Positions 1,895 to 23,446 are shown, counted from the stretch's first letter. The stretch is DNA of 64,000 nucleotides from Candidatus Omnitrophota bacterium (GCA_020429915.1 JAGQKV010000001.1:28971-92970), one strand, 5' to 3'. The notes: generated by a model from the letters alone, not told the origin. Translations and numbers: made by a program.

Positions 1895-3178
1895 ATGGCG
1901 ATCCTGTTTGACATCATATACGCGGTTCTCTTTGTCCTTTATTTGCCGGTTCTGAAGTGGAAGGGCAAGCTTCACGCCGGTTATCCGATGCGTATGGGAA
2001 GGATTCCGCCGGATATCCAACAAGCCTTAGCCACGAAACCGAATATCTGGATTCATGCCGTCAGTGTCGGGGAGGTCCTGGCAGTGGCCGATTTGATCGA
2101 CAAGCTGATGCAACGCTTCCCCGATAAGCGCGTCGTATGTTCGGTCGTGACCGATACCGGCTATGCGGTCGCCCGGGAGAAGCTGCCCGGAGGGGTACAG
2201 GTGATCTACGCGCCGCTCGATTTCAGTTGGGTCGTTCGCCGATTCGTGAAGCTCATCCGGCCGGAGATCTATATCTTTGCCGAGACTGAGATCTGGCCGA
2301 ACCTGTTCGATCACCTGCACGCCGCCGGCGTGCCGATGATCCAGGTCAACGGCCGTATCTCCGACAAATCCTTCGGCGGATACAAACGGTTGCGTCCGGT
2401 GACGCGGCGGGTCCTCGGCAAGGTCGACCGCTTTCTGATGCAGTCGCAAACGGACGCCGACCGGATCTGCGAACTCGGCGCGCACCCAGCTGCAGTCCGG
2501 GTCCCCGGCAATCTGAAATTCGACAGTTTGCCCGAGGCAGTGGTGCCCGATCCGGCCCGTTTCGGTCTGGGAACAACGGACCAACCGCTGATCGCCGGCA
2601 GCACCCATCCGGGCGAGGAGGAAATACTGCTAGACGTGTTCGCAGTGTTGAAGCAGGCTCATCCGGCGGCCCGGCTGATTATCTGCCCGCGGCATGTGAC
2701 GCGTTGCGACGAAGTCCTGAGTCTGATCCGCGGCCGGGATATGACCGGCGTCGCGTTGAGCGCGGCACAGGAAACCGGTGCTCCTGCGGACGCGGTCATT
2801 GTGGTCGATACCATGGGGCAGCTGCGGGATTTGTACAGCGTGGCGCGGGTAGTCTTCGTCGGCAAGACGTTCACGGTCCAGGGCGGTCAAAACATGATCG
2901 AACCCGGCTTCTTCGGCAAGCCGGTGATCGTCGGACCGTACACGCAAAACTTCAAAGACGTGATGACGATTTTTAAACGCGAGAAGGCCATCGTGCAAGT
3001 GAATGATCCGGACGAATTGCGAGAGGAACTGCTGGATATCTGGGACAATGCTATCCGCCGTGAGTCGCTCGGGATGGCGGCCAGGCGGGTGGTGGAGAAG
3101 TTTCAGGGGGCCACCGAGAAGACATTACTCGAGATCGAAACATTGGGACCGGGACGCCAGGATGCGGCGATACATTAG
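1895..3178 (+). CDS. waaA: 3-deoxy-D-manno-octulosonic acid (Kdo) transferase WaaA/KdtA
   Basis: In-frame ATG at 1895 just after the xer stop. Protein MAILFDIIYAVLFVLYLPVLKWKGK...IWIHAVSVGEV...GGQNMIEPG matches the KdtA N- and C-terminal motifs. The track ORF starts earlier at 1742 and overlaps xer, which is unlikely to be real. Confidence 0.85.
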   Translation: MAILFDIIYAVLFVLYLPVLKWKGKLHAGYPMRMGRIPPDIQQALATKPNIWIHAVSVGEVLAVADLIDKLMQRFPDKRVVCSVVTDTGYAVAREKLPGGVQVIYAPLDFSWVVRRFVKLIRPEIYIFAETEIWPNLFDHLHAAGVPMIQVNGRISDKSFGGYKRLRPVTRRVLGKVDRFLMQSQTDADRICELGAHPAAVRVPGNLKFDSLPEAVVPDPARFGLGTTDQPLIAGSTHPGEEEILLDVFAVLKQAHPAARLIICPRHVTRCDEVLSLIRGRDMTGVALSAAQETGAPADAVIVVDTMGQLRDLYSVARVVFVGKTFTVQGGQNMIEPGFFGKPVIVGPYTQNFKDVMTIFKREKAIVQVNDPDELREELLDIWDNAIRRESLGMAARRVVEKFQGATEKTLLEIETLGPGRQDAAIH

Positions 3179-4217
3179 CGCACTCATGCATGACGAGCGC
3201 CGGGGAACCGTCGACGCGCTGCCCAAGGCATTGTTATGGATGTTGTCCGTCGTATACGGACTGTTCATGCGCGGACGCAACTTGGCGTATGATCGCGGAT
3301 GGAAACCATCCTCCGATGTCGGAGTTCCGGTCATCAGCGTCGGAAATATCACGATGGGTGGGGCGGGCAAGACCCCGCTGGTTGTTTATATTGCGCGTGA
3401 AATCGTCCGGGCCGGCGGCAAACCCGTGGTCTTGCTGCGCGGTTACATGCAACAGGATCGTTCCGCCACGGACAGCGACGAGGCCGAAGTGATCCGCCGC
3501 AAGGTCCCGGGCATCGACGTTATCACCGGGGCCGACCGGGTGGGTCGTGCCCGCGATTATTTGAAGCAGGCGCAGTGTGACGTTTTTATCCTTGATGACG
3601 CATTTCAACACCGTAAAATTAAACGACGGCTGGATATCGTCGTCATCGACGCCCTGAATCCGTTCGGTAACGGGCAGGTTATCCCCCGCGGGATTCTGCG
3701 GGAACCGCTTGGCGGTTTGGGCCGAGCCGATCTCACCGTGGTGACCCGGACGGACCTAAATGCCGGGGCGCTGCCGGAGATTGAAAATACACTGAAGACG
3801 CGGGGCAGGCAATCTTCGTCCATTCACTCGGTGCACCGGGCGGAGGGGTTCGTCAATCTAAAGAGCGGCGAAAGACGGGACGTCAACGGTTTTGCCGGCA
3901 ATCCGGCCGTCGCTTTTTGCGGCTTGGGGAATCCGGACGGTTTTCGCCGTACGTTGGAAGCCCTGCGCGTGGATTTACGGCACTTCGTGGCTTTTGAGGA
4001 TCATCATCGCTATACGGCGGGAGATTTTCAAATGTTGACGTCGCAGGCGGCCGAGAGCGACACGAAAGTGCTATTAACGACGTTGAAGGATGCGGTCAAG
4101 TTGACGGCGATCAAGGGGTTGCCGCTCGACCGCATTTACTATCTTGATATCGGGATTGAGATAACCCATGGGAAAGACGAACTCACAGATCGAATCCATA
4201 GCGTACTACGCGGTTAG
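3162..4217 (+). CDS. lpxK: Tetraacyldisaccharide 4'-kinase LpxK
   Basis: ATG at 3162 overlaps the waaA stop by 17 nt. ISVGNITMGGAGKTP is the LpxK P-loop signature. About 351 aa. Confidence 0.85.
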   Translation: MRRYISALMHDERRGTVDALPKALLWMLSVVYGLFMRGRNLAYDRGWKPSSDVGVPVISVGNITMGGAGKTPLVVYIAREIVRAGGKPVVLLRGYMQQDRSATDSDEAEVIRRKVPGIDVITGADRVGRARDYLKQAQCDVFILDDAFQHRKIKRRLDIVVIDALNPFGNGQVIPRGILREPLGGLGRADLTVVTRTDLNAGALPEIENTLKTRGRQSSSIHSVHRAEGFVNLKSGERRDVNGFAGNPAVAFCGLGNPDGFRRTLEALRVDLRHFVAFEDHHRYTAGDFQMLTSQAAESDTKVLLTTLKDAVKLTAIKGLPLDRIYYLDIGIEITHGKDELTDRIHSVLRG

Positions 4218-6150
4218 AGCAATCGCCGGCATCCTGCGCCGGCTGCCGGTGAATGCCGCGCTGGCATTCGGCCGGGGAGTGGGCTGGTTCATGTTTTACG
4301 TGGACCGCCGTCACAAGGAACTGGCCTTTGCCAATGTCACCAAGGCCCTCGGCCATGAAAAGTCTCCCCGTGAGATTCGCGCTATTGTTAAGAAATTGTA
4401 CAAGAACATCGGCATGAATATCGTCGAGCTGTTCCGGCTCAAAGACATGACCCAAGAGCTCTACGACAAGTACGTGGATTGCGAAGGCCCGCCCCATATC
4501 GACCAGGCCGTGAAGGAAGGTCGCGGCTGTATCCTGCTGGCCATGCACATGGGCAACTGGGAACTGGCCAATATCTACTGCGCGCTGCACGGTATTCCGT
4601 ACAAGGTCCTGGTCCGCCCGCAACCCGGATGGGACCGTTTGAACGACCTGCTCAATTCGTACCGTTCCTGCAACGGGGCCGTCGTCGTTAAACGGGGGGG
4701 CGGGACGCGGGAACTGATCAAGAGTCTGAAAGACAATCAGGTGATTGCCATGGTCGTCGATCAAGGCGGACGCCAGGGCGTGCGTGTTCCGTTCTTCGGC
4801 CGCAAGGCCTCAATGTCGTCGGGTGCCATCCGCATTGCGATGAAAATGAACGTGCCGGTGCTGGTGTCGATCATCACGCGCAAGAACGGCGCTTATCATC
4901 AGGTCAAGGCCTTTCCCAAACTGGACCTCGTCGACACCGGGAATCCCGAGCAGGATGTCGAGGCCAATCTCAAACAAGCCATCAAAATATTCGAGGATTA
5001 TGTCCGGCAGAATCCCGATGAGTACGTGTGGACATACAAGGTCTGGAAGTATTCCGACCAGAGCAATATCACCATCCTCTATGACGGACGGACCGGTCAT
5101 CTGCGTCAGTCGCAGGCCGTGGCCAAATGGACACAGAAGGCGCTGGAGGAGCGCGGCATCGCATCCGAGGTCAACGTCTGTGAAATCCGTTACCGCAGCA
5201 AAAAGCACCGGACCTGGTTCGCCGTCCTGTATCAGGCGTTCGGCTGGTTTTTACGTTACGGCCGGCACGACATTTTGCAGCGTTTTATCACCGAGGAAAG
5301 TTATCGTTCCTTGAACCGGGTTCGCAGTGACTATATCATTTCCACCGGCACCGGGGTGGCCCCGCTGAATCATCTTCTGAGCCGCAATCTGCAGGCCAAG
5401 AGCGTGGCGATCCTCAAACCCGGACTGATGCACACCAACAAGTTCGACCTGGTCTTTCTTCCGCAGCACGACGTCGTTTCGGACGAGTACATCAGTGAGA
5501 AGGTGCGGATCGTACGCGGCGCGCCTAATCTGGTCACACCGGAGTACCTCGAAGAGCACAAGCAGCGGTTGTTGAAGAGATTTTCCCACTTGAAAACCAA
5601 GGTCCGTTTTAAGATCGGGCTGCTGATCGGCGGCGACGCCAAAGGGATGTACGTGGGCGAGGACCAGGTGCGGCTGATTTTGCGGCAGATCAAGGAGGCG
5701 CAAAAGGCCATTGATGCCGACCTGCTGGTCACCTCATCGCGGCGGACCCCCGCCTTTATTGATCAGCTCCTGGTTCGTCAACTGCGCAAGGACCCGCGGT
5801 GTCCGCTGCTGATTCTGCCCAACCGGGAGGACGTGCCGGAGGCGATCGGCGGGATCCTCGCGCTGTGCGATTTGCTGATCGTGTCCGGTGATAGCATCTC
5901 GATGGTCTCGGAAGCGGCCAGCTCCGGCAAAAAGACGATTGTCTTCTTTCCCAAGACCCAGGAAGTCCTGCTCCACGCAGGCAACAAGCACTGGAAGTTC
6001 ATCAATAAACTCAATGATCAAGGATACGTGCTCGCATCGCAGGCCAAGGATGTCGGGCGTTCGATTTTTGACATCGTCAAACAGAAGATCAATACCCGGC
6101 CCCTGGATGACAACAAGACCATTCTGAAGGCCGTCCGTAAAATTATTTAA
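4168..6150 (+). CDS. Fusion protein: N-terminal lipid A biosynthesis (Kdo2-lipid IVA) acyltransferase LpxL/HtrB-family domain + C-terminal ELM1/DUF1022-like domain
   Basis: 660 aa continuous ORF. Residues 1-~300 resemble LpxL/LpxM acyltransferases (N-terminal TM segment, RRHKELAFANVTKAL...; HMGNWE, the HX4D-type acyltransferase motif). Residues ~310-660 carry ITILYDGRTGHLRQSQAV..., which resembles the bacterial 'mitochondrial fission ELM1' family (DGKPGHxNQ motif). Family assignment of the C-terminal half is from memory, not a search. Confidence 0.7.
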   Translation: MGKTNSQIESIAYYAVRAIAGILRRLPVNAALAFGRGVGWFMFYVDRRHKELAFANVTKALGHEKSPREIRAIVKKLYKNIGMNIVELFRLKDMTQELYDKYVDCEGPPHIDQAVKEGRGCILLAMHMGNWELANIYCALHGIPYKVLVRPQPGWDRLNDLLNSYRSCNGAVVVKRGGGTRELIKSLKDNQVIAMVVDQGGRQGVRVPFFGRKASMSSGAIRIAMKMNVPVLVSIITRKNGAYHQVKAFPKLDLVDTGNPEQDVEANLKQAIKIFEDYVRQNPDEYVWTYKVWKYSDQSNITILYDGRTGHLRQSQAVAKWTQKALEERGIASEVNVCEIRYRSKKHRTWFAVLYQAFGWFLRYGRHDILQRFITEESYRSLNRVRSDYIISTGTGVAPLNHLLSRNLQAKSVAILKPGLMHTNKFDLVFLPQHDVVSDEYISEKVRIVRGAPNLVTPEYLEEHKQRLLKRFSHLKTKVRFKIGLLIGGDAKGMYVGEDQVRLILRQIKEAQKAIDADLLVTSSRRTPAFIDQLLVRQLRKDPRCPLLILPNREDVPEAIGGILALCDLLIVSGDSISMVSEAASSGKKTIVFFPKTQEVLLHAGNKHWKFINKLNDQGYVLASQAKDVGRSIFDIVKQKINTRPLDDNKTILKAVRKII

Positions 6151-6165
6151 CTGAGATATCAGGGC

Positions 6166-8259
6166 ATGCACATTTTACAGATTCTCCCCGAGCTGAACGT
6201 CGGGGGTGTCGAAACCGGAACCGTTGATTTTGCCAATTATTTGGTCGAAAACGGACACAAGTCGGTGGTGATCTCCAACGGCGGTCGCCTCGTCGATAAA
6301 CTGGAAGAACAGGGATCGACGCATTACACACTGCCCGTACATAAGAAATCATTGATGACGGCGTGGCGTATGATCGAGAAAGTACGCGAGATTATTCATG
6401 CCGAAAAGATTCAGATCGTCCACGCCCGTTCACGGGTGCCGGCCTGGATCGCTTACTTCGCCTGCCGCAAAACCAGGGCGATGTACATCACCACCTGCCA
6501 CGGATTTTACCGGCATCCATGGTACAGCCAGGTGATGGGGTGGTCGAAGCTCGTCATCGTGCCCAGCGAGGCCATCGCCCGGCACATGATCGATACTTAT
6601 CATGTCCCGGCCGAACGCATCCGATGTATTCCGCGCAGCGTGGACATGACGCGCTTCGAAGGGATCAAGCGACGCAAGCGCAAAGACGGCAGCTTCGTGG
6701 TCACGATCCTCGGCCGGCTGACGCCGTTGAAGGGGCATCCGTATTTTCTGCAGGCGATGGCGCGTGTGATGCGTCAGGTCCCGCATGTGAAGATTTGGGT
6801 GATCGGCGACGCGCCGCAAAAGAAGCCGGAGTATCGCGAGGAATTGGAGAAGCAGGCCGCGCGACTGGGGCTGCGCAACAATATCGAGTTTTTGGGCAAC
6901 CGGGCTGACGTCCCGCAGCTGTTGGCGCAAACCGACGTGCTGTGCTTTGCCTCGACCGAACCGGAATCCTTCGGACGGGCCATTGTGGAGGCCCAGGCGG
7001 CGCATGTCCCGGTGGTCGCGACCAAGGTCGGAGGCGTACTCGATATCATCGAAGACGGTGATACCGGATACTTGGTCCTGCCCAAAGATGCGGCCGCGAT
7101 GGCCGACAAGGTGCTGCATATCTACCAGCATCCGAAGGAAGCGAGGCGTATTTCCGAAGCCGCCTATACCAAGGTTAAGGAAAATTACACCATCGACCAC
7201 ATGGCAGGGCGTACGCTGAAGGTTTATAAAGAAATGCTGCGTATGGTCAATATTCTGGTCCTGAAGATCAGCGCGATCGGGGACGTGGTCCTGGTCACCG
7301 CCTCGCTTAAGGCCATACGCCAGAAGTATCCGCGGGCCAAGATTTATTGTCTGGTCGGGACCGAGTCGCGCAAGATTCTCAGCAACTGTCCCTATCTCGA
7401 CGGGATCATCGTTTACGATCACCGGGGCAAGGAGCGCGGCTACTGGCCGCTATGGAAGCTGTCCCGGAAACTGCGCGGCTACCGTTTCGACATGGCGATT
7501 GATTTTCAGAACAACCGCAAGAGCCACCTGCTCGCATTCTTGAGTATGGCGCGGGAGACATACGGATTCGATAACGGCAAATGGTCGGGCTTGCTGACCG
7601 ATCCTGTCCCCAACGACAGGCCGGACCTCCCGGCCGTGGCGCATCAGTTTCAGGTGTTGCAGGAACTTAAGATCAACTATGACCCGGATCAGCGTCTGGA
7701 GCTGTGGCCGACCAAACAGGACCGCCAGTACGTAGACGCGTTCTTCGATGAGGAATGGCTGGGTAACGCGCGCAATATCGTCGGTATCAATATCGCGGCA
7801 TCCCCGAAGTGGGGGACCAAGAACTGGCCGCCTGAGTATATCGCGGAATTGTGCGACAAGCTGGCCGCCAAGAATGTCCGGGTGATCCTGACCGGATCGG
7901 ACCGCGACCGGGAACTGGCCAAGTATATTCAGGAAAATGCCAAGTCCAAACCCACGGTGAGCGCGGGTAAGACCGATATCCTGCAACTGGCGGCGCTGAT
8001 CGAACGCTGCCAGGTGTACATCACCCCGGATTCGGCGCCGCTGCACGTTGCCGCCGCCGTCCACACGCCGGTCATCGCGTTGTTCGGTCCGACCGATTCC
8101 CGGCGGCACGTTCCGCCAGCCGATCAGCTGGCGGTTTACCAGCGCAAAGTGCCCTGCGCTCCGTGTTATTCGGGGCAATGCAAAATCCGGACGCACGATT
8201 GTATGCGCGAGATCAAACCGGAACACATTTTCAAGAAGGTGATGTCGCTGATATCTTGA
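6166..8259 (+). CDS. Fusion glycosyltransferase: N-terminal GT4 (RfaG-like) domain + C-terminal GT9 (ADP-heptose:LPS heptosyltransferase-like) domain
   Basis: 697 aa, no internal stop. N-terminal half: MHILQILPELNVGGVETGTVDF... and EPESFGRAIVEAQAAHVPVVATKVGG (GT4 EX7E region). C-terminal half starts at internal MVNILVLKISAIGDVVLVTASLKAIRQKYP... (the GT9 ILVIRLSAIGD signature) and ends with YITPDSAPLHVAAAVHTPVIALFGPTD. Confidence 0.75.
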   Translation: MHILQILPELNVGGVETGTVDFANYLVENGHKSVVISNGGRLVDKLEEQGSTHYTLPVHKKSLMTAWRMIEKVREIIHAEKIQIVHARSRVPAWIAYFACRKTRAMYITTCHGFYRHPWYSQVMGWSKLVIVPSEAIARHMIDTYHVPAERIRCIPRSVDMTRFEGIKRRKRKDGSFVVTILGRLTPLKGHPYFLQAMARVMRQVPHVKIWVIGDAPQKKPEYREELEKQAARLGLRNNIEFLGNRADVPQLLAQTDVLCFASTEPESFGRAIVEAQAAHVPVVATKVGGVLDIIEDGDTGYLVLPKDAAAMADKVLHIYQHPKEARRISEAAYTKVKENYTIDHMAGRTLKVYKEMLRMVNILVLKISAIGDVVLVTASLKAIRQKYPRAKIYCLVGTESRKILSNCPYLDGIIVYDHRGKERGYWPLWKLSRKLRGYRFDMAIDFQNNRKSHLLAFLSMARETYGFDNGKWSGLLTDPVPNDRPDLPAVAHQFQVLQELKINYDPDQRLELWPTKQDRQYVDAFFDEEWLGNARNIVGINIAASPKWGTKNWPPEYIAELCDKLAAKNVRVILTGSDRDRELAKYIQENAKSKPTVSAGKTDILQLAALIERCQVYITPDSAPLHVAAAVHTPVIALFGPTDSRRHVPPADQLAVYQRKVPCAPCYSGQCKIRTHDCMREIKPEHIFKKVMSLIS

Positions 8260-8260
8260 T

Positions 8261-9352
8261 ATGAACGTGATGCTTTTAACAACTCATTTGAATGCCGGGG
8301 GGATCACCAGTTATCTGCAGACCCTTTGCCGTGGACTGACTGCCGACGGGCACGGCGTGTGGTTGGTTTCGTCGGGCGGTGAGCGCGCAGGCGATTTTCA
8401 AGCCATGGGCTGCCGGCTGGTAACGCGGGATATCAAGACCAAATCCGAGGTCAGTCCGAAAATCTATGCTGTCCTGGGTGAGCTCAAAGACATCATTCTG
8501 CGGGAGAAAATCGAGGTGTTGCACGCACACACCCGGATCACCCAGGTGATGGCGGCCTGGTTACGGCGCATGAGCGGCCGGCCCAACATAGCGACCTGTC
8601 ATGGATTCTTTAAGACGCGCTGGAACCGGAGATTGTTTCCGTGCTGGGGTATCCGGACGATTGCGATCAGCGAACCCGTGGTACGGCATTTGACCGGGGA
8701 CTTTCGTTGCCCGCCGGAGACGGTCAAGTTGATCCCCAACGGCATAGACCTGGAACGTTTTTTTGTGGCGGCGGACGAAGATCGCACGGCCTGTCGGGAA
8801 CGCCACGGCCTGGGTGACGAACCGGTCGTCGGAATTATCGCGCGATTATCCGACGTGAAGGGGATCGATATCCTGATCGAGACAATCCCCCGGGTCAAAG
8901 AACGGATTCCTGAGGTAAAACTTGTCATCATGGGGGAGGGCCGCGAGGAACAGGCCTTGAAAGATCTGGTTCGCCAACGGCACCTGGAAGGCACGGTCCG
9001 CTTTTTTTCGGGCGTGGATGACATGGCGCTGTGCCTGAATATGTTTGACGTGTTCGTTATGCCGTCGCGGCAGGAGGGATTGGGGCTGTCGGTGCTGGAA
9101 GCCCAAGCGTGCGGATTGTGCGTGGTTGCCTCGCGAGTCGGCGGTTTGGTCTCCATCATCGAGGACGGAGAGACGGGATTTCTCGTCGACCCGGAGGACC
9201 CCGCAGTTCTGGCGGCGCGCATCACGGCCGTGTTGACCGACGATTTCACGCGCCGCAAGGTCGGCCGTCAGGCCCGCGCGCGGGTGGGCGAACATCACGC
9301 GGCGTCACGCATGGTGGCCGAGACCGTTAAGGTGTATCGGGAGGTAATATAA
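8261..9352 (+). CDS. Glycosyltransferase family 4 (LPS core/sugar transferase)
   Basis: 363 aa. MNVMLLTTHLNAGGITSYLQTL...; C-terminal PSRQEGLGLSVLEAQACGLCVVASRVGG has the GT4 E..E motif. Confidence 0.8.
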   Translation: MNVMLLTTHLNAGGITSYLQTLCRGLTADGHGVWLVSSGGERAGDFQAMGCRLVTRDIKTKSEVSPKIYAVLGELKDIILREKIEVLHAHTRITQVMAAWLRRMSGRPNIATCHGFFKTRWNRRLFPCWGIRTIAISEPVVRHLTGDFRCPPETVKLIPNGIDLERFFVAADEDRTACRERHGLGDEPVVGIIARLSDVKGIDILIETIPRVKERIPEVKLVIMGEGREEQALKDLVRQRHLEGTVRFFSGVDDMALCLNMFDVFVMPSRQEGLGLSVLEAQACGLCVVASRVGGLVSIIEDGETGFLVDPEDPAVLAARITAVLTDDFTRRKVGRQARARVGEHHAASRMVAETVKVYREVI

Positions 9353-9355
9353 ACG

Positions 9356-10378
9356 ATGACCGGCATCCTGGTGGTCAATGTTAACTGGCTGGGCGACGTG
9401 ATCTTCTCGGCACCGGTCTTTCGCGCGTTGCGGGACGCGCAGCCCGATGCGCATATCGCCTGCCTGGCTGTGCCGCGGGTCGTGGAGATCCTGCGGTGCA
9501 TACCCGAAATCGACGAGGTAATTCCGTACGATGAATCCGGCGCGGACAAAGGCGTGGGGGCCAAGCTGCGCCTGGTGCGCCGGATCAAACGGCAGGGTTT
9601 CGACCGGGCCTACTTTTTGTCGCGTTCGCTGTCGCGCGCGGTCCTTATCCGGCTGGCCGGTATTCCGCAGCGTTTCGGCTATGAGAATAAAGGGCGGGGC
9701 CGCCTGTTGACTGGCGTGACTCCGCCGCCGACGGAACAGTTGCATCGCAGCGATTACTATCTCAGGGTGATCGAGGATGCCGGCGTACCCGTCCGCGACC
9801 GCACGACCCGCCTGCAACCGCCGGACGAATCGGCCGAAAAAGTGACGCGGCTGCTGACAGCGCACGGCCTGAGCGCCGGCGGAACCCGGATTGTCGTCAA
9901 TCCCGGCGGAAATTGGGATCTGAAGCGGTGGCCGTGCTTGTCATTTGCCCGGCTGATCGACAAGCTTGATGAACTGCCCGGAGCACGGATTATCATAACC
10001 GGTGCGCCGGACGATCGTGAGCTGGCCGCCGAGATCTTGAGCATGGCCCGGCGCCCGCAGGCGGTCACCGATTTGACCGGACAATTGACCCTGACCGAGC
10101 TGATCGCGTTTTTGCGCCATATCGATATTTTTGTCTCGGCCGACTCCGGACCGTTGCATATTGCGGGCAGCGTCGGGACGACGGCCGTCGGCATCTTCGG
10201 ACCAACGCGGCCGGAATGGACCGGTCCGCGGGGGAGCGCCGAGGCGCACATTCTGCAGCGGGATGTGGGCTGTAACCGGGAACCCTGTTACTATCTAGAG
10301 TGTCCCGACAACTTTTGTATGCGGGCCGTCACGGTGGACGATGTTTTTTCGCGTATCCGACAAATCCAAAGTGCGTAA
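9356..10378 (+). CDS. ADP-heptose:LPS heptosyltransferase family (GT9)
   Basis: 340 aa. MTGILVVNVNWLGDVIFSAPVFRALRDA...; C-terminal VSADSGPLHIAGSVGTTAVGIFGPT is typical of WaaC/WaaF/WaaQ-type GT9 enzymes. Confidence 0.8.
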   Translation: MTGILVVNVNWLGDVIFSAPVFRALRDAQPDAHIACLAVPRVVEILRCIPEIDEVIPYDESGADKGVGAKLRLVRRIKRQGFDRAYFLSRSLSRAVLIRLAGIPQRFGYENKGRGRLLTGVTPPPTEQLHRSDYYLRVIEDAGVPVRDRTTRLQPPDESAEKVTRLLTAHGLSAGGTRIVVNPGGNWDLKRWPCLSFARLIDKLDELPGARIIITGAPDDRELAAEILSMARRPQAVTDLTGQLTLTELIAFLRHIDIFVSADSGPLHIAGSVGTTAVGIFGPTRPEWTGPRGSAEAHILQRDVGCNREPCYYLECPDNFCMRAVTVDDVFSRIRQIQSA

Positions 10379-11333
10379 GATCCTGGTGATCTCCCTGTCG
10401 AATATCGGGGATGTGGTGTTGACCCTGCCGGTGGTCGATATTCTGCTGCGGGATTTTCCTAACAGTACGGTATCCGTGGTGGTCGGTCCCAAGGCCGAGT
10501 CGTTGCTGCGCGACAATCCGGTGCTGGCTGAGGTGATCGTACTGGACAAACACCAGTCGCGCTCGGCGCTGTGGTCCTGGGTCGCGGAATTGCGCCGGCG
10601 AAAATTCGACATGATCATCGATTTGCGAAACTCGATGATTCCGTTGATGCTGATGGCGCGTTACATGACGCCACCGGAGATGCGGCGGGTCAAGGGACAA
10701 CACATGCGGCGCAAGCACCTCGCGCGCCTGCGTACCGTCCATCACTTCGCAGACGACAACGCGCCGTGCCGGTGCCTCACCGCGACCGCGTCCGACGCGG
10801 GAGCTGTGGATGCACTTCTGGGTGATTCCGGTCCTTTCGTGGTGATGGCGCCCGGTTCGGCGGATCAGGCCAAGCGCTGGTCGCCGTCCGGTTTCGCGGC
10901 AGTAGCCAAATATGTGAAAAGCGAGTATGATCTAGGGATTGTTTTTCTCGGTGACCGTCACGATCGGGAGATCGCGGCGCGCATCACTGCCGCGTTGGAT
11001 GTCCCGGTCCTCGACCTGTGTGGCCGGACAACGCTGAGTCAATCCGCCGAAATCGTCCGGCGGGCGGCTGCGGCGGTCGTTAACGACAGCGCGGTCCTGC
11101 ACTTGGCCGGGTACCACAATATTCCCACGGTTGCCTTGTTCGGTTATACCGACCCGGTGAGGTACGGACCGTGGAGCGAACAGCGCGTCATTGTGACCCC
11201 GGAAGGCACGCCGTTACCGAAGGACAGCAGCACCGAGCGAAAGGTGGCGTATATCGAAAGCATTCCCCCGGAAGCGGTGATTAGCCGGCTGTGTTACACC
11301 GACGGGAGGATGCGACTGGTGAGCGACGAATGA
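10341..11333 (+). CDS. ADP-heptose:LPS heptosyltransferase family (GT9), second copy
   Basis: RKILVISLSNIGDVVLTLPVVDIL...AVVNDSAVLHLAGYHNIPTVALFGYTDP. The true start may be GTG at 10371 (GTGCGTAA overlap with the upstream stop); the ATG at 10341 overlaps the upstream gene by 38 nt. Confidence 0.75.
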   Translation: MFFRVSDKSKVRKILVISLSNIGDVVLTLPVVDILLRDFPNSTVSVVVGPKAESLLRDNPVLAEVIVLDKHQSRSALWSWVAELRRRKFDMIIDLRNSMIPLMLMARYMTPPEMRRVKGQHMRRKHLARLRTVHHFADDNAPCRCLTATASDAGAVDALLGDSGPFVVMAPGSADQAKRWSPSGFAAVAKYVKSEYDLGIVFLGDRHDREIAARITAALDVPVLDLCGRTTLSQSAEIVRRAAAAVVNDSAVLHLAGYHNIPTVALFGYTDPVRYGPWSEQRVIVTPEGTPLPKDSSTERKVAYIESIPPEAVISRLCYTDGRMRLVSDE

Positions 11334-12373
11334 AGACTTATAAAAACATCCTGGTTGTACGCACCGACCGGATCGGGGACGTGATTCTGACCACGCCGGC
11401 GATCAAGGCCCTTAAGGATAAATTTCCCCAAGCCCGGTTGACGGTGTTGGTGGCCCCGCTGACATACGATTTGTTGCACGGCCTGAAGTGGATCGACGAG
11501 ATTATGGTGGATGACCGGGCCGGTTTGAACAAGGGCATGATGGGATTCTTTCATCTGATGCATTCCCTGCGTCACAAGAAGTTTGATCTGGCCGTCGTCT
11601 TCCATACCAAACGCCGGACGAATTTGCTCTGTTTTCTGGCGGGCATTCCCAACCGGCTGGGATACCGCAACGGCAAGTACGGCTTTTTGCTCAACAGGCC
11701 CATGGACGACGACCGGCATCACGGACAAAAGCACGAGGCCGCCTATTGCATAGACCTGCTTGCCGCGGTGGGCGTCAAGGCCGGACCGCCCGAATTGGCG
11801 GTGGCTGTCCAGGAGTCGTCCGAACAATGGGTGCTGGATTTTCTTAAAGGCAAGGGCGTGGAGCCCGCGCACCATCTCTACATCATACATCCGGCGGCCA
11901 GTGATCCGGCCAAGCAGTGGCCCAAGGAGAACTTCGCCGAATTGATTGATGCCATCGCCAAACGGGACGCCAACGCGCGTTTTCTGATCGTCGGCGGCAA
12001 CGAGAACCAGCCCACCGCCCGGAATATCCAAAATAAAACCAATACCGAGGTCCTGGACACCTCGGGCCAGCTGACCATCCGCCAGCTGGTATCCGTGATC
12101 AAGCACTGCCATATGCTGATCTCAAATGACTCCGGTCCGGTGCATATCGCTGCCGCGCTTAAAACCCCGGTGGTCTCGATCTTCACCCGAAACCAGCCCG
12201 GGATCAACCCGCAGCGATGGGAGCCCTTGGGGGAGAAAGCCCGGGTCGTCAGCGTGGCTCCGGACGCCGGTTCCGACTTCCGCAAAGCCCGCCCGTATGA
12301 TCCTAACTGTATGAAACCTATACCAGTTAGGGACGTCGTTGCCGCGGTTGACGCGCTTTTGAAACTGTGTTAG
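11330..12373 (+). CDS. ADP-heptose:LPS heptosyltransferase family (GT9), third copy
   Basis: ATG at 11330 overlaps the previous stop (ATGA). MKTYKNILVVRTDRIGDVILTTPAIKALKDKFP...ISNDSGPVHIAAALKTPVVSIFT. Confidence 0.8.
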   Translation: MKTYKNILVVRTDRIGDVILTTPAIKALKDKFPQARLTVLVAPLTYDLLHGLKWIDEIMVDDRAGLNKGMMGFFHLMHSLRHKKFDLAVVFHTKRRTNLLCFLAGIPNRLGYRNGKYGFLLNRPMDDDRHHGQKHEAAYCIDLLAAVGVKAGPPELAVAVQESSEQWVLDFLKGKGVEPAHHLYIIHPAASDPAKQWPKENFAELIDAIAKRDANARFLIVGGNENQPTARNIQNKTNTEVLDTSGQLTIRQLVSVIKHCHMLISNDSGPVHIAAALKTPVVSIFTRNQPGINPQRWEPLGEKARVVSVAPDAGSDFRKARPYDPNCMKPIPVRDVVAAVDALLKLC

Positions 12374-12434: not shown

Positions 12435-13469
12435 ATGAGAAATTACCGCTCTGTCATATCCAAGTTCTCTAAGCAGTCTGTATTGGTGATCGGAGACCTG
12501 ATTCTCGATCAGTATATCCGGGGGAGTGTTTCGCGCATTTCGCCTGAAGCCCCGGTACCTGTTGTCCTGCAACAAGATTCGTTCTATACGCCGGGAGGTG
12601 CCGCCAATGTGGCGCATAATCTTAGCGGACTCGGAGCGCAGGTCACCCTGATGGGGATCATCGGCAAGGACGACGAAGGCCAGATCCTGGTGAAGGATTT
12701 GAAGAAACGCAAAATCGACACCAAGGGCATCCTGGTGGACGCTCTCCGGCCGACGGTGACCAAGACCCGGGTGATCGCCCAGCATCAGCAGGTGGTCCGG
12801 ATCGACAAGGAGGACATGGACACGCCGCTCGCCGCGGGCGCCATTAAGAAACTGCACGGATTTCTCGACCGGCACCTTAAGGACTATGACGCGGTAATCC
12901 TGTCCGACTACGGTAAAGGACTGCTGACGGCGCAAACGGTGCAGTATGCGGTCACGCTGGCCCGGCAGCACAAGGTGATCATCACGGTCGATCCCAAGGT
13001 CGAACACTTTGACTATTACCGCCGGGTCACGGCCATCACGCCGAACCTCAAGGAGACCGAAAACGCGATTCGCAGCATCAAGATCACCTCGCCGGAGTTG
13101 TCGCAAAAGCTCGGCGTGAACTCGGACAAACTTCGCACGGATGAAGAGATCGACTGTGCCGGTCGGGAGCTGCTCAAGTGCCTTGAACTCGAATCCCTGC
13201 TGGTGACTTTGAGCGAACGCGGCATGCGGCTATTTGAGAAAGGCCGCCGTCCGGTATCGATTAAGACCAAGGCCATCGACGTCTTCGATGTCACCGGCGC
13301 GGGCGACGCGGTCATCTCCGTGTTCACGCTGGCCCTGGCCTGCGGGGCAAGCAAGCCGCTCGCCGCTGATTTGGCAAACGTGGGCGCGGGAGTGGTCGTC
13401 GGAAAGCTGGGGGCCGTAGCCGTCACTAAAAGGGAATTGCTCGACGCCCTCAGAGAGGGAGAAAAATGA
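12435..13469 (+). CDS. hldA: D-glycero-beta-D-manno-heptose-7-phosphate kinase (HldE kinase domain only, HldA-like; pfkB/ribokinase family)
   Basis: 344 aa. LVIGDLILDQYIRGSVSRISPEAPVPVV...GGAANVAHNLSGLGA...DVTGAGDAVISVF (the pfkB GAGD motif). It ends where kdsB starts; there is no C-terminal adenylyltransferase domain. Confidence 0.8.
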   Translation: MRNYRSVISKFSKQSVLVIGDLILDQYIRGSVSRISPEAPVPVVLQQDSFYTPGGAANVAHNLSGLGAQVTLMGIIGKDDEGQILVKDLKKRKIDTKGILVDALRPTVTKTRVIAQHQQVVRIDKEDMDTPLAAGAIKKLHGFLDRHLKDYDAVILSDYGKGLLTAQTVQYAVTLARQHKVIITVDPKVEHFDYYRRVTAITPNLKETENAIRSIKITSPELSQKLGVNSDKLRTDEEIDCAGRELLKCLELESLLVTLSERGMRLFEKGRRPVSIKTKAIDVFDVTGAGDAVISVFTLALACGASKPLAADLANVGAGVVVGKLGAVAVTKRELLDALREGEK

Positions 13470-14200
13470 ACGTGATCGGCGTCATTCCGGCGCGTTATGA
13501 CTCGGTACGTTTTCCCGGCAAGGCCTTGGCCGAGATCGACGGCCGCCCGATGATTCAACACGTTTACGAACGGGCCAGCCGGAGCCTGAGCCTGACGGAA
13601 GTGGTCGTCGCCTGTGACGATGAACGGATCAGGGACGCCGCGGCGGCGGCCGGGGCCCGGGTGATCATGACCCGATCCGATCACGCCTGCGGGACAGACC
13701 GCATCGTTGAGGCGGTGCAGGGTATCGAGGCCGACATCATCGTTAATATTCAGGGGGATGAGCCGCTGATCCAGCCGGATATCATCGATACGCTGGTGGC
13801 CTGTCTCGGCGAGGACTCACAGCAGGTCATGGCCACGGTGGTCAAGAAGATCGAGGACCCGCAGGAGATCGCCGATCCGAATGTGGTTAAGGTCGTCCTG
13901 GACAAGCAGAACTTCGCGATTTATTTTTCGCGCTCCCCGATACCGTATAACCGGGCGGGCACACAACTCACTTATCACAAGCATCTGGGAATTTACGCCT
14001 ATACCAAGCCCTTCCTGCTGATTTATGCCGCCCTGCCGAAAACCGCGCTGGAGCAGGCCGAGTGTCTGGAACAACTGCGCGCCATCGAGCACGGATTCAA
14101 GATCAAGACCGTCGCCACGCAGCATGAGAGCATCGGCGTGGACACGCCTGAAGATTTGGCAAAGGTGACGGCACTCATTAACGAAAGCAGGGGCACATGA
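13466..14200 (+). CDS. kdsB: 3-deoxy-manno-octulosonate cytidylyltransferase (CMP-Kdo synthetase)
   Basis: MNVIGVIPARYDSVRFPGKALAEIDGRPMIQHVYERA...NIQGDEPLI, classic KdsB motifs. ATGA overlap with the upstream gene. Confidence 0.9.
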   Translation: MNVIGVIPARYDSVRFPGKALAEIDGRPMIQHVYERASRSLSLTEVVVACDDERIRDAAAAAGARVIMTRSDHACGTDRIVEAVQGIEADIIVNIQGDEPLIQPDIIDTLVACLGEDSQQVMATVVKKIEDPQEIADPNVVKVVLDKQNFAIYFSRSPIPYNRAGTQLTYHKHLGIYAYTKPFLLIYAALPKTALEQAECLEQLRAIEHGFKIKTVATQHESIGVDTPEDLAKVTALINESRGT

Positions 14201-15018
14201 AAAGCATTCGCATCGGCGACATCCAGATTGGCGGGAAGAATCCGCTGGTCCTGATCGCGGGACCGTGCGTGGTTGAAGACCGCGCAACCACTCTCAAGAT
14301 AGCCGCAGGCCTGAAACGCATCACGGACAAGCTCAAGGTCCCGTTGATTTTCAAGGCCAGCTATGACAAGGCGAACCGCACGTCGCTGAACTCCTACCGC
14401 GGTCCGGGCATCACCGCCGGTCTCGAGGTGTTGGAAGAGGTCAAATACAAATACGGTGTTCCGGTGATCAGTGACGTGCATAATATCGGCGAGGTGGACC
14501 AGGCCGCCCGGGTCTTGGATGTTCTGCAAATTCCGGCCTTTCTGTGCCGGCAGACCGATCTGCTGGTCTGCGCAGGAAGCACGGGCAAAGTGGTCAATAT
14601 CAAAAAGGGTCAGTTCCTGGCCCCGGAAAACATGCGCCAGGCCGCGGCGAAGGTGGCCAGCACCGGCAACAAAAGGATTTTGCTGACCGAGCGCGGCGCC
14701 AGTTTCGGTTATAATAACCTCGTCACCGATTTCCGAGCCTTGGCCATTTTGAGGGAATGCGGATATCCGGTCGTGCTCGACGCTTCACACAGCGTTCAGC
14801 AACCCGGGGGGTTGGGGCATGCCTCGGGCGGTCGACGCGAATTCATTCCGCTGCTGGCGCGCTGCGGTGTGGCGGCCGGCTGCGACGGAATCTTTATGGA
14901 AGTGCACACCGATCCGACAAAGGCCCTGTCGGACGGGCCGAATATGCTCCCGCTGCGACAGCTCGAAAAACTGCTCGCGGACTTGGTGGCGATCGACCGG
15001 ATCGTCAGAAAGAAGTGA
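14197..15018 (+). CDS. kdsA: 2-dehydro-3-deoxyphosphooctonate aldolase (Kdo8P synthase)
   Basis: LVLIAGPCVVEDRATTLKIAAGLK...FKASYDKANRTS...VVLDASHSVQQPGG, typical of KdsA/DAHP-synthase-I family Kdo8P synthase. Confidence 0.9.
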   Translation: MKSIRIGDIQIGGKNPLVLIAGPCVVEDRATTLKIAAGLKRITDKLKVPLIFKASYDKANRTSLNSYRGPGITAGLEVLEEVKYKYGVPVISDVHNIGEVDQAARVLDVLQIPAFLCRQTDLLVCAGSTGKVVNIKKGQFLAPENMRQAAAKVASTGNKRILLTERGASFGYNNLVTDFRALAILRECGYPVVLDASHSVQQPGGLGHASGGRREFIPLLARCGVAAGCDGIFMEVHTDPTKALSDGPNMLPLRQLEKLLADLVAIDRIVRKK

Positions 15019-15019
15019 T

Positions 15020-15979
15020 ATGTCCTTAAAGAAAGCACAGGAAGTCATCAAGATCGAGGCCCGCGAACTGCAGGCTCTGGCCGGCCGGATCAACCGCAAT
15101 TTCAGCCGTGCGGTCAACATGATGGCCGAATGCCGGGGAAGGGTCGTGGTGACCGGCATGGGCAAGGCGGGATTGGTCGGCAGCAAGATTGCCGCGACCC
15201 TGTCGTCGACCGGAACGCCGAGCATCTCGATGCACAGCGCCGACGCCGTTCACGGAGACTTGGGTCAGGTCACACAGCACGATGTCCTGATTCTGATTTC
15301 AAAAAGCGGGGAGACCGACGAGACCAAACGTCTGCTTCCGTTGCTGAAGAAGATCGGCTGCAAGACGATCGCGATGACCGGCAATGTGAAATCCAGCCTC
15401 GCCAAATACAGCGATGTGACGCTGGATGTCTCGGTTAAGCAGGAAGGCTGCCCGCTGGGGCTGGCCCCGATGGCGTCCACGACGGCTATGCTGGCCTGCG
15501 GCGACGCCTTGGCCGCGTGTCTGATCATCAAGAAGGGCTTTAAGCGCGAGGACTTCGCTTTTTATCATCCGGCCGGAAGCCTGGGGCGGCAGCTTTTGCT
15601 CAAGGTGGAAGATATTATGCGTAAGGGGGCGGCTTTTCCTAAGGTGCGACAGACGACACCGGTCAAGCAGGTGTTGCTGGCCATCACCAAGGCGCGCTGC
15701 GGTTCCGCCTGTGTGACCGACCAGTATGGCGTGCTAGTGGGCATCTTTACCGATGGGGACTTGCGCCGGCACATCGAATCCGACCCTGACCTGCTCAACC
15801 TGAAGGTCAGCAAAGTGATGACCAAAAAGCCGGTCACCATCAATCAGGATAAGCTGGCCGCCGAGGCGCTGGCGCTGCTGAAGACACGTAAAATCGACGA
15901 AGTTCCGGTTGTGGACGATAGTCACAAACCGGTCGGACTGTTGGATATCCAGGATCTCCTGAAGGTAGGTTTGCTGTGA
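15020..15979 (+). CDS. kdsD: Arabinose-5-phosphate isomerase KdsD/GutQ (SIS + tandem CBS domains)
   Basis: ATG at 15020, 2 nt after the kdsA stop. VVVTGMGKAGLVGSKIAATLSSTGTPS...ILISKSGETDE (SIS domain), then C-terminal CBS pairs. The track ORF start at 14819 is an upstream in-frame artefact. Confidence 0.85.
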   Translation: MSLKKAQEVIKIEARELQALAGRINRNFSRAVNMMAECRGRVVVTGMGKAGLVGSKIAATLSSTGTPSISMHSADAVHGDLGQVTQHDVLILISKSGETDETKRLLPLLKKIGCKTIAMTGNVKSSLAKYSDVTLDVSVKQEGCPLGLAPMASTTAMLACGDALAACLIIKKGFKREDFAFYHPAGSLGRQLLLKVEDIMRKGAAFPKVRQTTPVKQVLLAITKARCGSACVTDQYGVLVGIFTDGDLRRHIESDPDLLNLKVSKVMTKKPVTINQDKLAAEALALLKTRKIDEVPVVDDSHKPVGLLDIQDLLKVGLL

Positions 15980-16524
15980 ATAAAACGTTGAAAGATAAGT
16001 TTAATCGGGTTAAACTGCTAGTCCTCGATGTGGACGGTATCCTTACCGACGGCCGCATTATCGTCAATGATCAGGGACGCGAAACCAAGCACTTTGACGT
16101 GCAGGACGGTTTCGGGATTGTCCTGTTCCAGCGCGCCGGGTTTAAAGTGGCCATTATTTCGGCCCGCGGGTCGGATGCGGTCAAGGCCAGGACGATGGAT
16201 CTGAAGATCAGCAAAGTCTATCTCAACGCGCGCAACAAGCTCAAGATCTACCGGCAGCTCGCCAAGAGTTCCGGCGTCGACGACCAGGAGGTGTGTTTTA
16301 TGGGAGACGATCTGCCCGATCTCGGGGTGGCCCAGACCGTCGGCACGGTATGTACCGTTCCCTCCGCGCGCGAGGAAATCCGGAAAGAAGCCGACTATGT
16401 TACGTCCTGTTCCGCCGGACGCGGAGCGGTTCGCGAAGTGATTGAATTGATCCTGAAATCCAAGGGGATGTGGGAAGACGTGGTAAAGGAGTACGCGAGT
16501 GATCAACAAGTCCGTAATCATTAG
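15976..16524 (+). CDS. kdsC: 3-deoxy-D-manno-octulosonate 8-phosphate phosphatase KdsC (HAD superfamily)
   Basis: GTG start overlapping the kdsD stop (GTGA). KLLVLDVDGILTDGRII...IISARGSDAVKARTMDLKI...CFMGDDLPDL; HAD motifs I-III in KdsC arrangement. Confidence 0.85.
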   Translation: MNKTLKDKFNRVKLLVLDVDGILTDGRIIVNDQGRETKHFDVQDGFGIVLFQRAGFKVAIISARGSDAVKARTMDLKISKVYLNARNKLKIYRQLAKSSGVDDQEVCFMGDDLPDLGVAQTVGTVCTVPSAREEIRKEADYVTSCSAGRGAVREVIELILKSKGMWEDVVKEYASDQQVRNH

Positions 16525-17353
16525 TTTGTTGCTGGCCGTGACCGTCACGCTTCCCGTCGCCGCGCAGCAGGACGAACAACGCTTTCAAGGGTTCAACCTG
16601 CAGGGTTACAACGACAGCGGGGAAAAGGCCTGGGACGTCGTGGGCGAGACCGCCGATGTGGTGGACGGGACCAAAATCCAGTTGACCAACATCAATGCCA
16701 ACACCTACGGCGAGCGGTCCTTAAATGTCACCGCCGCCGAAGGGCTGGTGGACCAAACATCCGGTTTCATGAAACTGGAGAAGGATGTGGTCATCACCAG
16801 TGACGACGGTTCGCAGATGATGACGGATTACGTCGAGTGGAACCGGGAAGAAGATCTGGTGCAGTCGGATGATGAGGTTTTTATCAAGAACGATAATTTT
16901 ACGGCCACCGGGACCGGACTCGAGGCCCGTCCGGGGATGAAAAGCGCGCAACTGAAGAAGGACGTAACGGTGCGCGTCGATACCAGCCAGCTGGCCCCGG
17001 AATCGTCCGCCGAACCGGTTGAGCCGCCCAAGCAATTTCTCACCGTGACCAGCGACGGACCGATGGTCCTTGATCAGCTCCTCAATAAGGCGCGTTTCGA
17101 GGTGAATGTGGTGGCCGAGCAGGAAGACCAGACGCTCAAGGCGGACGTCATTGAAATTTATTTTAAAGAAGGCATGCGCGATATCATCGAGATGGTCTGC
17201 ATCGGGAATGTAGAAATCACTCAGGGCGACAACAAGACCTATGCGGAAAAGGCGACATACAATGCCGAGGACCAGAAGCTGACATTGTCCGGAAGACCCA
17301 AACTGATACTGGAAACGGGGGGTGAGAATGGCATTGCACCTCTTGGAAACTAA
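16499..17353 (+). CDS. LPS transport periplasmic protein, LptA/LptC (OstA-like) family, N-terminal signal/anchor
   Basis: 284 aa with a hydrophobic N-terminus MINKSVIISLLLAVTVTLPVAAQQ. Sits between kdsC and lptB, where lptC-lptA sit in Proteobacteria. Has beta-jellyroll-like repeat segments (NVTAAEGLVD...; NVEITQGDNKTYAEKATYNAEDQKLTLSG). Only one such gene is present, not two. Confidence 0.6.
   Translation: MINKSVIISLLLAVTVTLPVAAQQDEQRFQGFNLQGYNDSGEKAWDVVGETADVVDGTKIQLTNINANTYGERSLNVTAAEGLVDQTSGFMKLEKDVVITSDDGSQMMTDYVEWNREEDLVQSDDEVFIKNDNFTATGTGLEARPGMKSAQLKKDVTVRVDTSQLAPESSAEPVEPPKQFLTVTSDGPMVLDQLLNKARFEVNVVAEQEDQTLKADVIEIYFKEGMRDIIEMVCIGNVEITQGDNKTYAEKATYNAEDQKLTLSGRPKLILETGGENGIAPLGN

Positions 17354-21350: not shown

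Positions 21351-21354
<4 letters not shown>
19771..21354 (+). CDS. serA: D-3-phosphoglycerate dehydrogenase SerA (with C-terminal ACT domain)
   Basis: MKILVSDKLAPEGLAILE...GRAGVGLDNVDL...LGIIGLGRIGSTVS (NAD-binding GxGxxG). C-terminal ACT-like region NNDKPGMVGAIGATLGEGQVNIAGITLGR. ATG at 19771 chosen; earlier in-frame ATGs at 19705/19741 overlap or abut clpP. Confidence 0.85.

Positions 21355-23446
<2,092 letters not shown>

Follow-up and report, generated by a model that had tools for sequence, protein, structure and literature searches.

An LpxL-like acyltransferase domain fused to an ELM1/KdoT-like glycosyltransferase domain in the lipid A-Kdo operon of Omnitrophota

The fusion gene and its two domains

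We analyzed a 64,000-nucleotide (nt) stretch of one strand of a Candidatus Omnitrophota bacterium (GCA_020429915.1 JAGQKV010000001.1:28971-92970), here called the window; positions are counted from its first letter. At 4168-6150 on the plus strand, a single open reading frame (ORF) encodes a protein of 660 amino acids (aa) that joins a lipid A late (secondary) acyltransferase domain to a GT-B-type glycosyltransferase domain of the ELM1/GtrOC1/KdoT family. The ORF runs uninterrupted for 660 codons from its ATG to a TAA. PF03279 (Lip_A_acyltrans) matches aa 13-294 (4204-5049) with an E value of 2.2e-47 and 162.1 bits against a gathering cutoff of 22.3, covering profile positions 16-294 of 295. 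PF06258 (Mito_fiss_Elm1) matches aa 310-658 (5095-6141) with an E value of 2.2e-45 and 155.5 bits against a cutoff of 27, covering positions 2-302 of 304. A preliminary description of this DNA had proposed an LpxL-like/ELM1-like fusion in this one frame, and two full-length matches so far above threshold bear it out.

Conserved motifs are found in both domains. We counted invariant positions over 53 aligned fusions of 45 to 82% identity and aligned the C-terminal domain (C-domain) with KdoT of Acinetobacter baumannii, a PF06258 member that is further discussed below. In the N-terminal domain (N-domain), HMGNWE (aa 127-132; 4546-4563) contains the HX4E catalytic dyad, H127/E132, and both residues are unchanged in all 53 fusions. 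The domain junction (aa 281-320; 5008-5127) has no gaps, and P283, Y286, W288, K291, W293, K294, Y295, D306, H311, and Q314 are invariant in it. The N-lobe motif of the C-domain, DGRTGHLRQS, occupies aa 306-315 (5083-5112); this motif and HMGNWE had both been quoted in the preliminary description. D306 and H311 align with D8 and H13 of KdoT, a correspondence that rests on hhalign, hmmalign having lost the N-terminal mapping. H434-D435 (5467-5472), of which H434 is invariant, aligns with KdoT H109-D110 in hmmalign. The SRRT motif (S524, R525, R526, and T527; 5737-5748), unchanged in 53 of 53 fusions, aligns with KdoT S178-R179-R180-T181, and the C-lobe motif SGDSISMVSEA (5884-5916) has TEDSVSMVFEA as its KdoT counterpart. 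Further invariant positions are G488-G489 and a block around S573-E582. Judged by these motifs, both halves of the fusion look catalytically intact.

The membrane anchor that had been ascribed to the N terminus was not confirmed. The best N-terminal 19-residue Kyte-Doolittle window of the fusion has a value of 1.14, versus a usual transmembrane threshold of ∼1.6, and just 46% of the fusion homologs reach 1.6; thus, a canonical transmembrane anchor is unsupported. The Kyte-Doolittle window is a crude method and leaves room for peripheral association. The AlphaFold2 model has several helices at the N terminus, and the association of the fusion with the membrane is probably peripheral or amphipathic.

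AlphaFold2 gave the full-length fusion an LpxM/PatA-like fold in its N-terminal half and a GT-B fold in its C-terminal half, with a mean predicted local distance difference test score (pLDDT) of 90 and a predicted template modeling score (pTM) of 0.87. The C-domain modeled by itself (pLDDT, 89) was again a GT-B fold. The pTM of the full-length model suggests that the two domains have a defined arrangement relative to each other. When the N-domain model was compared to the PDB with Foldseek, the top match was A. baumannii LpxM (5KNK, E value of 7.6e-13, and 5KN7), and mycobacterial PatA was also found, with a target-normalized template modeling score (TM-score) of 0.81 to 0.83 for 5F2Z. The C-domain model matched only generic GT-B enzymes and epimerases (such as MGD1, WecB-type epimerases, TreT, MshA, and a GT9 protein); the model and these matches agree with the GT-B type that had been predicted for this half of the protein. 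A profile search of the PDB sequences with the C-domain gave no relative at an E value of ≤1, and we know of no solved structure in the PF06258 family. Among these GT-B matches was a Tetrahymena mitochondrial complex I subunit of ∼500 residues (8b6f_A0 and 8gym_T1; Foldseek E value of ∼1e-7), a curious match given that PF06258 is named after a mitochondrial protein.

The operon and the distribution of the fusion

The fusion gene lies in a cluster of genes on the same strand in the order topA, xerC, waaA, lpxK, the fusion, a GT4-GT9 gene, a GT4 gene, three GT9 genes, a PfkB gene, kdsB, kdsA, kdsD, kdsC, lptC/A, and lptB. As had been proposed for a waaA-lpxK operon, the two genes immediately upstream of the fusion are waaA (Kdo [3-deoxy-D-manno-oct-2-ulosonic acid] transferase, GT30; 1895-3178; 427 aa; PF04413, E value of 1e-61) and lpxK (tetraacyldisaccharide 4'-kinase; 3162-4217; PF02606, E value of 9e-81; above the cutoff of TIGR00682). 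The WaaA of the window is below the cutoff in the NCBIfam lipid IVA Kdo transferase models. The end of lpxK overlaps the start of the fusion by 50 nt, and this overlap is kept in homologous loci.

Directly downstream of the ELM1 module is the GT4-GT9 fusion gene (heptosyltransferase II-like; 6166-8259), in which GT4 occupies aa 1 to ∼358 and the GT9 half passes TIGR02195 (162.6 bits versus a cutoff of 134.6). It is followed by one GT4 gene and three GT9 heptosyltransferase-family genes (8261-12373; assigned by Pfam and synteny) and by a PfkB-family sugar kinase gene (HldE/RfaE-kinase-like; 12435-13469), the position of which is kept in homologous loci. Next are kdsB (13466-14200; PF02348), kdsA (14197-15018; 273 aa; PF00793), kdsD (15020-15979; SIS and CBS domains), and kdsC (15976-16524; HAD). 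Because these four genes are in the same cluster, the complete pathway for supplying CMP-Kdo (the cytidine monophosphate-activated sugar) is encoded together with the fusion. If the longest kdsD ORF (14819-15979) is taken, kdsA is masked; the likely start of kdsD is the ATG at 15020. With this start, the kdsB-kdsA-kdsD-kdsC genes are tightly packed, with 4-nt overlaps at several junctions. The 284-aa ORF at 16499-17353 has LptC at aa 29-159 and LptA/LptD_N at aa 190-269 and appears to be an LptC-LptA fusion; the gene for an LptB-like ATP-binding cassette (ABC) ATPase (17322-18056) lies downstream of it. Pfam scans found no second PF03279 gene in the 64-kb window, the remainder of which is housekeeping.

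To describe the locus in other genomes, we used the best 80 species-representative loci found with an ELM1 alignment, all of which are in Omnitrophota-type metagenome-assembled genomes (MAGs). The core order xerC-waaA-lpxK-fusion-GT4/GT9-GT4-GT9-GT9-GT9 is present in most of these loci and in homologs down to 47% identity. The GT4-GT9 fusion occurs in nearly all the Omnitrophota loci examined, always after the fused ELM1 module. That the fused ELM1 is always followed by a GT4 module recalls the codependence of KdoT and GnaT in Acinetobacter (see below).

The fusion recurs throughout the phylum. The same 660-aa sequence, without a single change, appears in 62 indexed blocks of the assembly collection, and the places shown belong to two separate ENA assemblies. 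At an E value of ≤1e-5, 586 proteins were found by homology; almost all of the best 120 are ∼655 aa long, with both Pfam domains and 46 to 100% identity. When 118 full-length homologs were aligned, the junction (aa 281-320) was gap free and among the best-conserved stretches. In a scan of one genome per species, relatives are encoded in at least 452 genomes. Among the best 150 representatives of clusters at 50% identity, obtained with the C-domain alone as the query, 110 carry an LpxL-type domain. In the 80 species loci, 77 of 81 ORFs are fused in one frame (75 complete and 2 cut by a contig end). The remaining four are two ORFs at contig edges plus those of loci L048 and L081. In L048 (1-1377), the LpxL and ELM1 parts are neighboring ORFs in the same frame with stop codons between them; in L081 (3368-5317), the break is within the ELM1 domain. 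Either might be a pseudogene, a gene that has split naturally, or an error of assembly. Because one "stand-alone" ELM1 call is in the same 90%-identity cluster as a 642-aa fusion, the broken forms are likelier to be artifacts. In the other two frames over the fusion, the longest open stretch is ≤154 aa.

The repeated assemblies, the gap-free junction, and the in-frame fusions at 77 of 81 ORFs rule out a frameshift or an artificial joining of two genes, and comparison with the orthologous loci gave no sign of the hidden frameshift that the preliminary description had considered. The fusion is real, ancient, and phylum-wide in Omnitrophota. Many third-party MAGs in ENA that are titled "uncultured Planctomycetales bacterium" (loci L008, L016, L017, and others) have the same Omnitrophota-type operon and fusion at 40 to 51% identity; their taxonomic labels are probably imprecise.

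LpxL is not the only partner of the ELM1 module. Five of the 150 cluster representatives have a different N-terminal extension, three of them being LpxK-ELM1 and one GT9-ELM1. The LpxK-ELM1 form (P0183, P0192, and P0288; locus L086, 8001-10136) is recurrent in Omnitrophota (∼38 clusters), and in the closed 1.55-Mb genome CP070837.1 it takes the same operon slot, with no LpxL module in that operon. The GT9-ELM1 form (P0244; locus L091, 4116-6326) is also directly upstream of the GT4-GT9 gene. The search that gave LpxK-ELM1 further returned WaaA-LpxK fusions of ∼780 to 810 aa in Omnitrophota. All these fusions, LpxK-ELM1, GT9-ELM1, WaaA-LpxK, and GT4-GT9, belong to the same operon and phylum as LpxL-ELM1; what differs is the N-terminal partner of ELM1. 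A genuine stand-alone Omnitrophota ELM1 gene (P0204, 357 aa; locus L090, 5058-8074) has a 4-nt overlap with the 3' end of a gene for an MsbA-like ABC transporter, in surroundings of Wzy_C, Wzm/Wzt-type, and several methyltransferase genes. Thus, the ELM1 module is constant and its covalent partner (LpxL, LpxK, or GT9) is interchangeable; in the alternative fusions and the stand-alone copy alike, the module remains in the company of genes for lipid A and the core.

Outside Omnitrophota, the linkage of ELM1 to lipid A genes is looser. The preliminary description had suggested a survey of how often the two domains are adjacent or fused; within the phylum the answer is given by the counts above, and in A. 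baumannii, kdoT is not beside lpxL, lpxK, or waaA. On the IncP plasmid pPNP1 of Pseudomonas sp. JS425 (locus L088, 4654-6996), the ELM1 domain of a 780-aa protein (aa 441-723) follows a 440-aa N-terminal region that has no Pfam match. Its gene adjoins genes for an LpxO-like Asp/Asn beta-hydroxylase, lptG, and phosphocholine/CDP (cytidine diphosphate)-alcohol genes.

Comparison with characterized relatives

The N-domain can be placed in its family but not assigned to a named enzyme. Its likeness to LpxL and LpxM (E. coli LpxL; A. baumannii LpxM, 5KN7/5KNK) consists of PF03279, the HX4E dyad, and the top rank of LpxM in Foldseek, and the gene is placed after waaA and lpxK, as expected of a Kdo-dependent late acyltransferase. 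Unlike LpxL and LpxM, the fusion is without a strongly hydrophobic N-terminal helix, has a C-terminal glycosyltransferase of 360 aa, and falls below the equivalog cutoffs. In phmmer searches of the PDB, PatA (E value of 5e-11) was ahead of LpxM (3e-9), and HMGNWE aligned with HSGNWD of PatA. PatA, the phosphatidylinositol mannoside (PIM) acyltransferase of Mycobacterium smegmatis (5F2Z/5OCE), is of the same Pfam family and fold, with a target-normalized TM-score of ∼0.8, and sits peripherally on the membrane, having no transmembrane helix. However, PatA acylates the mannose of PIM in Actinobacteria, whereas the genomic context of the fusion is lipid A and Kdo. The best NCBIfam match of the N-domain is NF006270, at 135.9 bits versus a cutoff of 248; the lipid A lauroyl acyltransferase models give 136 and 120 bits and the PIM acyltransferase model gives 83. 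Because all the NCBIfam equivalog cutoffs were missed, the N-domain cannot be called an orthologue of LpxL, LpxM, or LpxP in particular, and the sequence places it in the PF03279 family without a more specific name.

The preliminary description had presented the ELM1-like family as one of unknown function, which is outdated. The A. baumannii OC-locus gene gtrOC1 (A1S_2903) encodes a PF06258 member, and PF06258 belongs to clan CL0113 (PMC10327509). Deletion of gtrOC1 gave a Kdo2-lipid A chemotype, a genetic result of 2024 that implicated the gene (PMC10936431). Work of December 2025 with the purified protein, renamed KdoT, showed that it is a CMP-Kdo:Kdo2-lipid IVA KdoIII transferase in vitro; it favors a tetra-acylated over a hexa-acylated acceptor and is inactive on lipid IVA itself (PMC12856342). 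Its activity needs R180 of SRRT, a motif that is invariant among KdoT homologs; the SRRT arginines have been proposed to bind the carboxylate of Kdo in CMP-Kdo (PMC12856342). Mutants in the candidate catalytic bases D8, H13, H109, and D110 are still active, and a distant Rickettsia homolog partially complements ΔkdoT (PMC12856342). In Acinetobacter, KdoT and the GT4 enzyme GnaT/LpsB are codependent in vivo, with KdoT working just before GnaT (PMC12856342). An action of the ELM1-like domain on Kdo/lipid A intermediates, as had been suggested, agrees with these experiments. A role of the PF06258 family on Kdo2-lipid IVA is already published, so that inference is correct yet not new.

For the comparison we recovered the KdoT sequence from an A. 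baumannii chromosome that is misfiled in a plasmid collection (locus L087, 5845-6732), which was matched by the C-domain of the window. It is a 296-aa ORF directly downstream of ilvE, followed by genes for a PF13524 glycosyltransferase and a deacetylase-like ORF; this is the published position of gtrOC1, and the numbering of D8, H13, H109, D110, and S178-R179-R180-T181 fits the report exactly (PMC12856342). PLSDB holds several such misfiled chromosomes, "A. baumannii plasmids" of 3.6 to 4.1 Mb with the chromosomal ilvE-gtrOC1 OC locus (NZ_CP064203.1, NZ_CP077849.1, and NZ_CP104448.1).

With hhalign, the profile of the Omnitrophota C-domain aligned to KdoT with a probability of 99.6% and an E value of 6e-25 over 247 columns (26% identity); BLASTP of the C-domain of the window against KdoT gave 28% identity and an E value of 1e-13. 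The motifs DGxxGH, HD, SRRT, and DSxSMVxEA are kept at aligned positions. KdoT and the C-domain are thus alike in Pfam family, GT-B fold, aligned motifs, and a coding gene located among lipopolysaccharide (LPS) core genes. They differ in that KdoT is a stand-alone protein of 296 aa, encoded in an OC locus beside ilvE and away from lpxL, lpxK, and waaA, whereas the domain in the window is ∼350 aa and fused after an LpxL-type domain.

Two other proteins invite comparison. ELM1 of Arabidopsis (ELONGATED MITOCHONDRIA 1), the namesake of PF06258, resembles the C-domain only in Pfam family; it is a mitochondrial outer-membrane adaptor for DRP3A, is not known to act as a glycosyltransferase, and works outside any LPS context, and its adaptor role has no bearing on a bacterial LPS operon. 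The canonical Kdo transferase, WaaA (KdtA, GT30), has its gene two places before the fusion and, like the C-domain, has a GT-B fold; its donor is CMP-Kdo and its acceptors are of the lipid IVA type. However, the WaaA family (PF04413) has no detectable sequence relationship to the C-domain, and KdoT, unlike WaaA, cannot initiate Kdo addition on lipid IVA.

Proposed function, alternatives, and other observations

We think it more probable than not that the fusion is a bifunctional, membrane-associated enzyme in which a late acyltransferase and a KdoT-like glycosyltransferase both act on Kdo-lipid IVA, the latter transferring further Kdo from CMP-Kdo. In this pathway, LpxK, encoded one gene upstream, would make lipid IVA, and WaaA would put Kdo on it. 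The PF03279 domain would then add a secondary acyl chain to Kdo-lipid IVA by means of its His-X4-Glu dyad, and the ELM1/KdoT-family domain would glycosylate that intermediate in its Kdo region. Homology to KdoT makes the addition of another Kdo the likeliest reaction of the C-domain, the donor being CMP-Kdo, which the products of kdsB, kdsA, kdsD, and kdsC of the same cluster would supply. The product would be extended by the downstream GT4-GT9 protein and then by other heptosyltransferase-family enzymes. Our data establish the domain identities, the intact motifs, the modeled folds, the homology to KdoT, the conservation of the fusion, and the content of the operon; we infer from them which sugar is donated, where on the acceptor it is placed, in what order the two reactions run, and why the domains became fused.

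Late acyltransferases of the PF03279 family, such as E. coli LpxL, are Kdo dependent. Because LpxL is Kdo dependent and KdoT prefers a tetra-acylated acceptor, both known activities meet on Kdo2-lipid IVA. Most likely, the fusion would serve to hold at the membrane, beside its lipid substrate, a glycosyltransferase that would otherwise be soluble or peripheral, and to fix expression of the two activities at 1:1. Strict channeling between the active sites is less likely because sister lineages fuse ELM1 to LpxK or GT9. For the link between ELM1 and lipid A, the covalent fusion had been called direct evidence; it is circumstantial instead, and the same module is also fused to LpxK or GT9.

Several of our results weigh against the proposed function. 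The identity of the C-domain to KdoT is low (∼26 to 28%), only 16 of 36 invariant C-domain positions are common to KdoT, and the Omnitrophota C-domain is ∼50 residues longer than KdoT. Membership in PF06258 does not fix the donor sugar because A. baumannii has five PF06258 proteins (GtrOC1, 14, 19a, 19b, and 22), of which GtrOC1 alone is characterized (PMC10327509). The best PDB sequence match of the N-domain is PatA, a sugar acyltransferase, and the N-domain is under the equivalog cutoff for every NCBIfam LpxL/LpxM/LpxP model (17 LpxL-type models). No clear transmembrane helix is predicted at the N terminus of the fusion by the Kyte-Doolittle method, and a Tistrella homolog is in a non-LPS neighborhood.

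The first of these points bear on an alternative that we consider unlikely but worth weighing, namely, that the ELM1 domain acts on Kdo-lipid A but transfers another sugar (a hexuronic acid, a hexosamine, or a heptose), or adds the second Kdo beside a monofunctional WaaA. The low identity to KdoT, the insertion of ∼50 residues relative to it, and the four additional A. baumannii paralogs in OC loci would all fit, and because the WaaA of the window is under all the NCBIfam equivalog cutoffs, the number of Kdo residues that it adds is not fixed. On the other side, the SRRT arginines, the proposed holders of the Kdo carboxylate, are invariant in the fusions, the full CMP-Kdo pathway is in the same cluster, and even a distant Rickettsia homolog partly complements ΔkdoT.

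A more far-reaching version of the bifunctional enzyme is doubtful. Given the high pTM and the invariant aromatic junction, a rigid arrangement of the two sites is possible in the model, and the fusion might be a machine with two active sites that couples late acylation to core extension on a single Kdo-lipid IVA molecule, with ELM1-GT4 as the ancient equivalent of KdoT-GnaT. If so, WaaA-independent Kdo addition would be an ancestral and widespread branch of inner-core synthesis, not a proteobacterial peculiarity, and in Omnitrophota, ELM1 might even add the second Kdo after a monofunctional WaaA.

It is improbable that the N-domain is instead PatA-like, acylating a sugar hydroxyl of the core or of another glycolipid, so that glycosylation would be coupled with sugar O-acylation. 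The rank of PatA before LpxM among the PDB sequence matches would agree with this, as would the missed LpxL/LpxM/LpxP cutoffs, the lack of a strong N-terminal transmembrane helix, and the absence of the PF03279 module from the operon in the LpxK-ELM1 lineages. However, the N-domain scores 136 and 120 bits with the lauroyl acyltransferase models versus 83 with the PIM acyltransferase model, its top Foldseek match is LpxM, and its gene directly follows waaA-lpxK and is the sole PF03279 gene of the 64-kb window.

We give very little credence to a noncatalytic ELM1 half that would act as a scaffold or adaptor, organizing LPS enzymes at the membrane in the way that plant ELM1 recruits its partner. 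Plant ELM1 is indeed described as an adaptor for a dynamin-related protein, and the activity of the KdoT D8, H13, H109, and D110 mutants indicates an unusual catalytic mechanism; but KdoT alone catalyzes Kdo transfer in vitro, the motifs of the nucleotide-sugar-binding lobe (SRRT and DSxSMVxEA) are invariant in the fusions, and the modeled GT-B fold is complete. Finally, an artifact of frameshift, misassembly, or a lost stop codon, for which the split ORFs of L048, the interrupted L081, and some "stand-alone" ORF calls might speak, has a negligible chance against the identical protein in 62 blocks and two ENA assemblies, the 118 gap-free homologs, the 77 of 81 fused ORFs, the lack of an open stretch of >154 aa in another frame, and the clustering of a "stand-alone" call with a 642-aa fusion.

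In our search of the literature (open-access papers and preprints), we found neither this fusion nor the lipid A of Omnitrophota described. What is new here is the fusion architecture, the alternative partners of the ELM1 module, and the probable extension of KdoT-type chemistry to Omnitrophota. With the bifunctional late acyltransferase and KdoT-like enzyme that we favor, WaaA-independent glycosylation of the inner core would be extended from Acinetobacter and Rickettsia to a deep-branching and largely uncultured phylum. The genomic evidence for this does not depend on the experiments in Acinetobacter: it consists of three covalent fusions (to LpxL, LpxK, and GT9), the waaA-lpxK-...-kds operon, and the stand-alone copy that overlaps an MsbA-like gene. 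As a KdoT variant that would be tethered to the membrane by nature, the fusion could also be useful for structural studies.

Automated pipelines do detect both domains of the fusion, and for some of the Omnitrophota proteins the name in use at NCBI is already "ELM1/GtrOC1 family putative glycosyltransferase." Other database names are misleading in that each covers one half of the protein: "Mitochondrial fission ELM1 family protein" leaves out the acyltransferase, and "KDO2-lipid IVA lauroyltransferase" leaves out the glycosyltransferase.

Two other ORFs of the window, both on the plus strand, were noted. Between serA and purA is a 257-aa ORF (21351-22124) with no Pfam match at an E value of ≤1e-5. 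An ORF of >1,127 aa (60618-64000) runs off the end of the window; its first ∼745 residues have no Pfam match, and these are followed by a His_Phos_1 domain and then by a PrmA-like methyltransferase segment.

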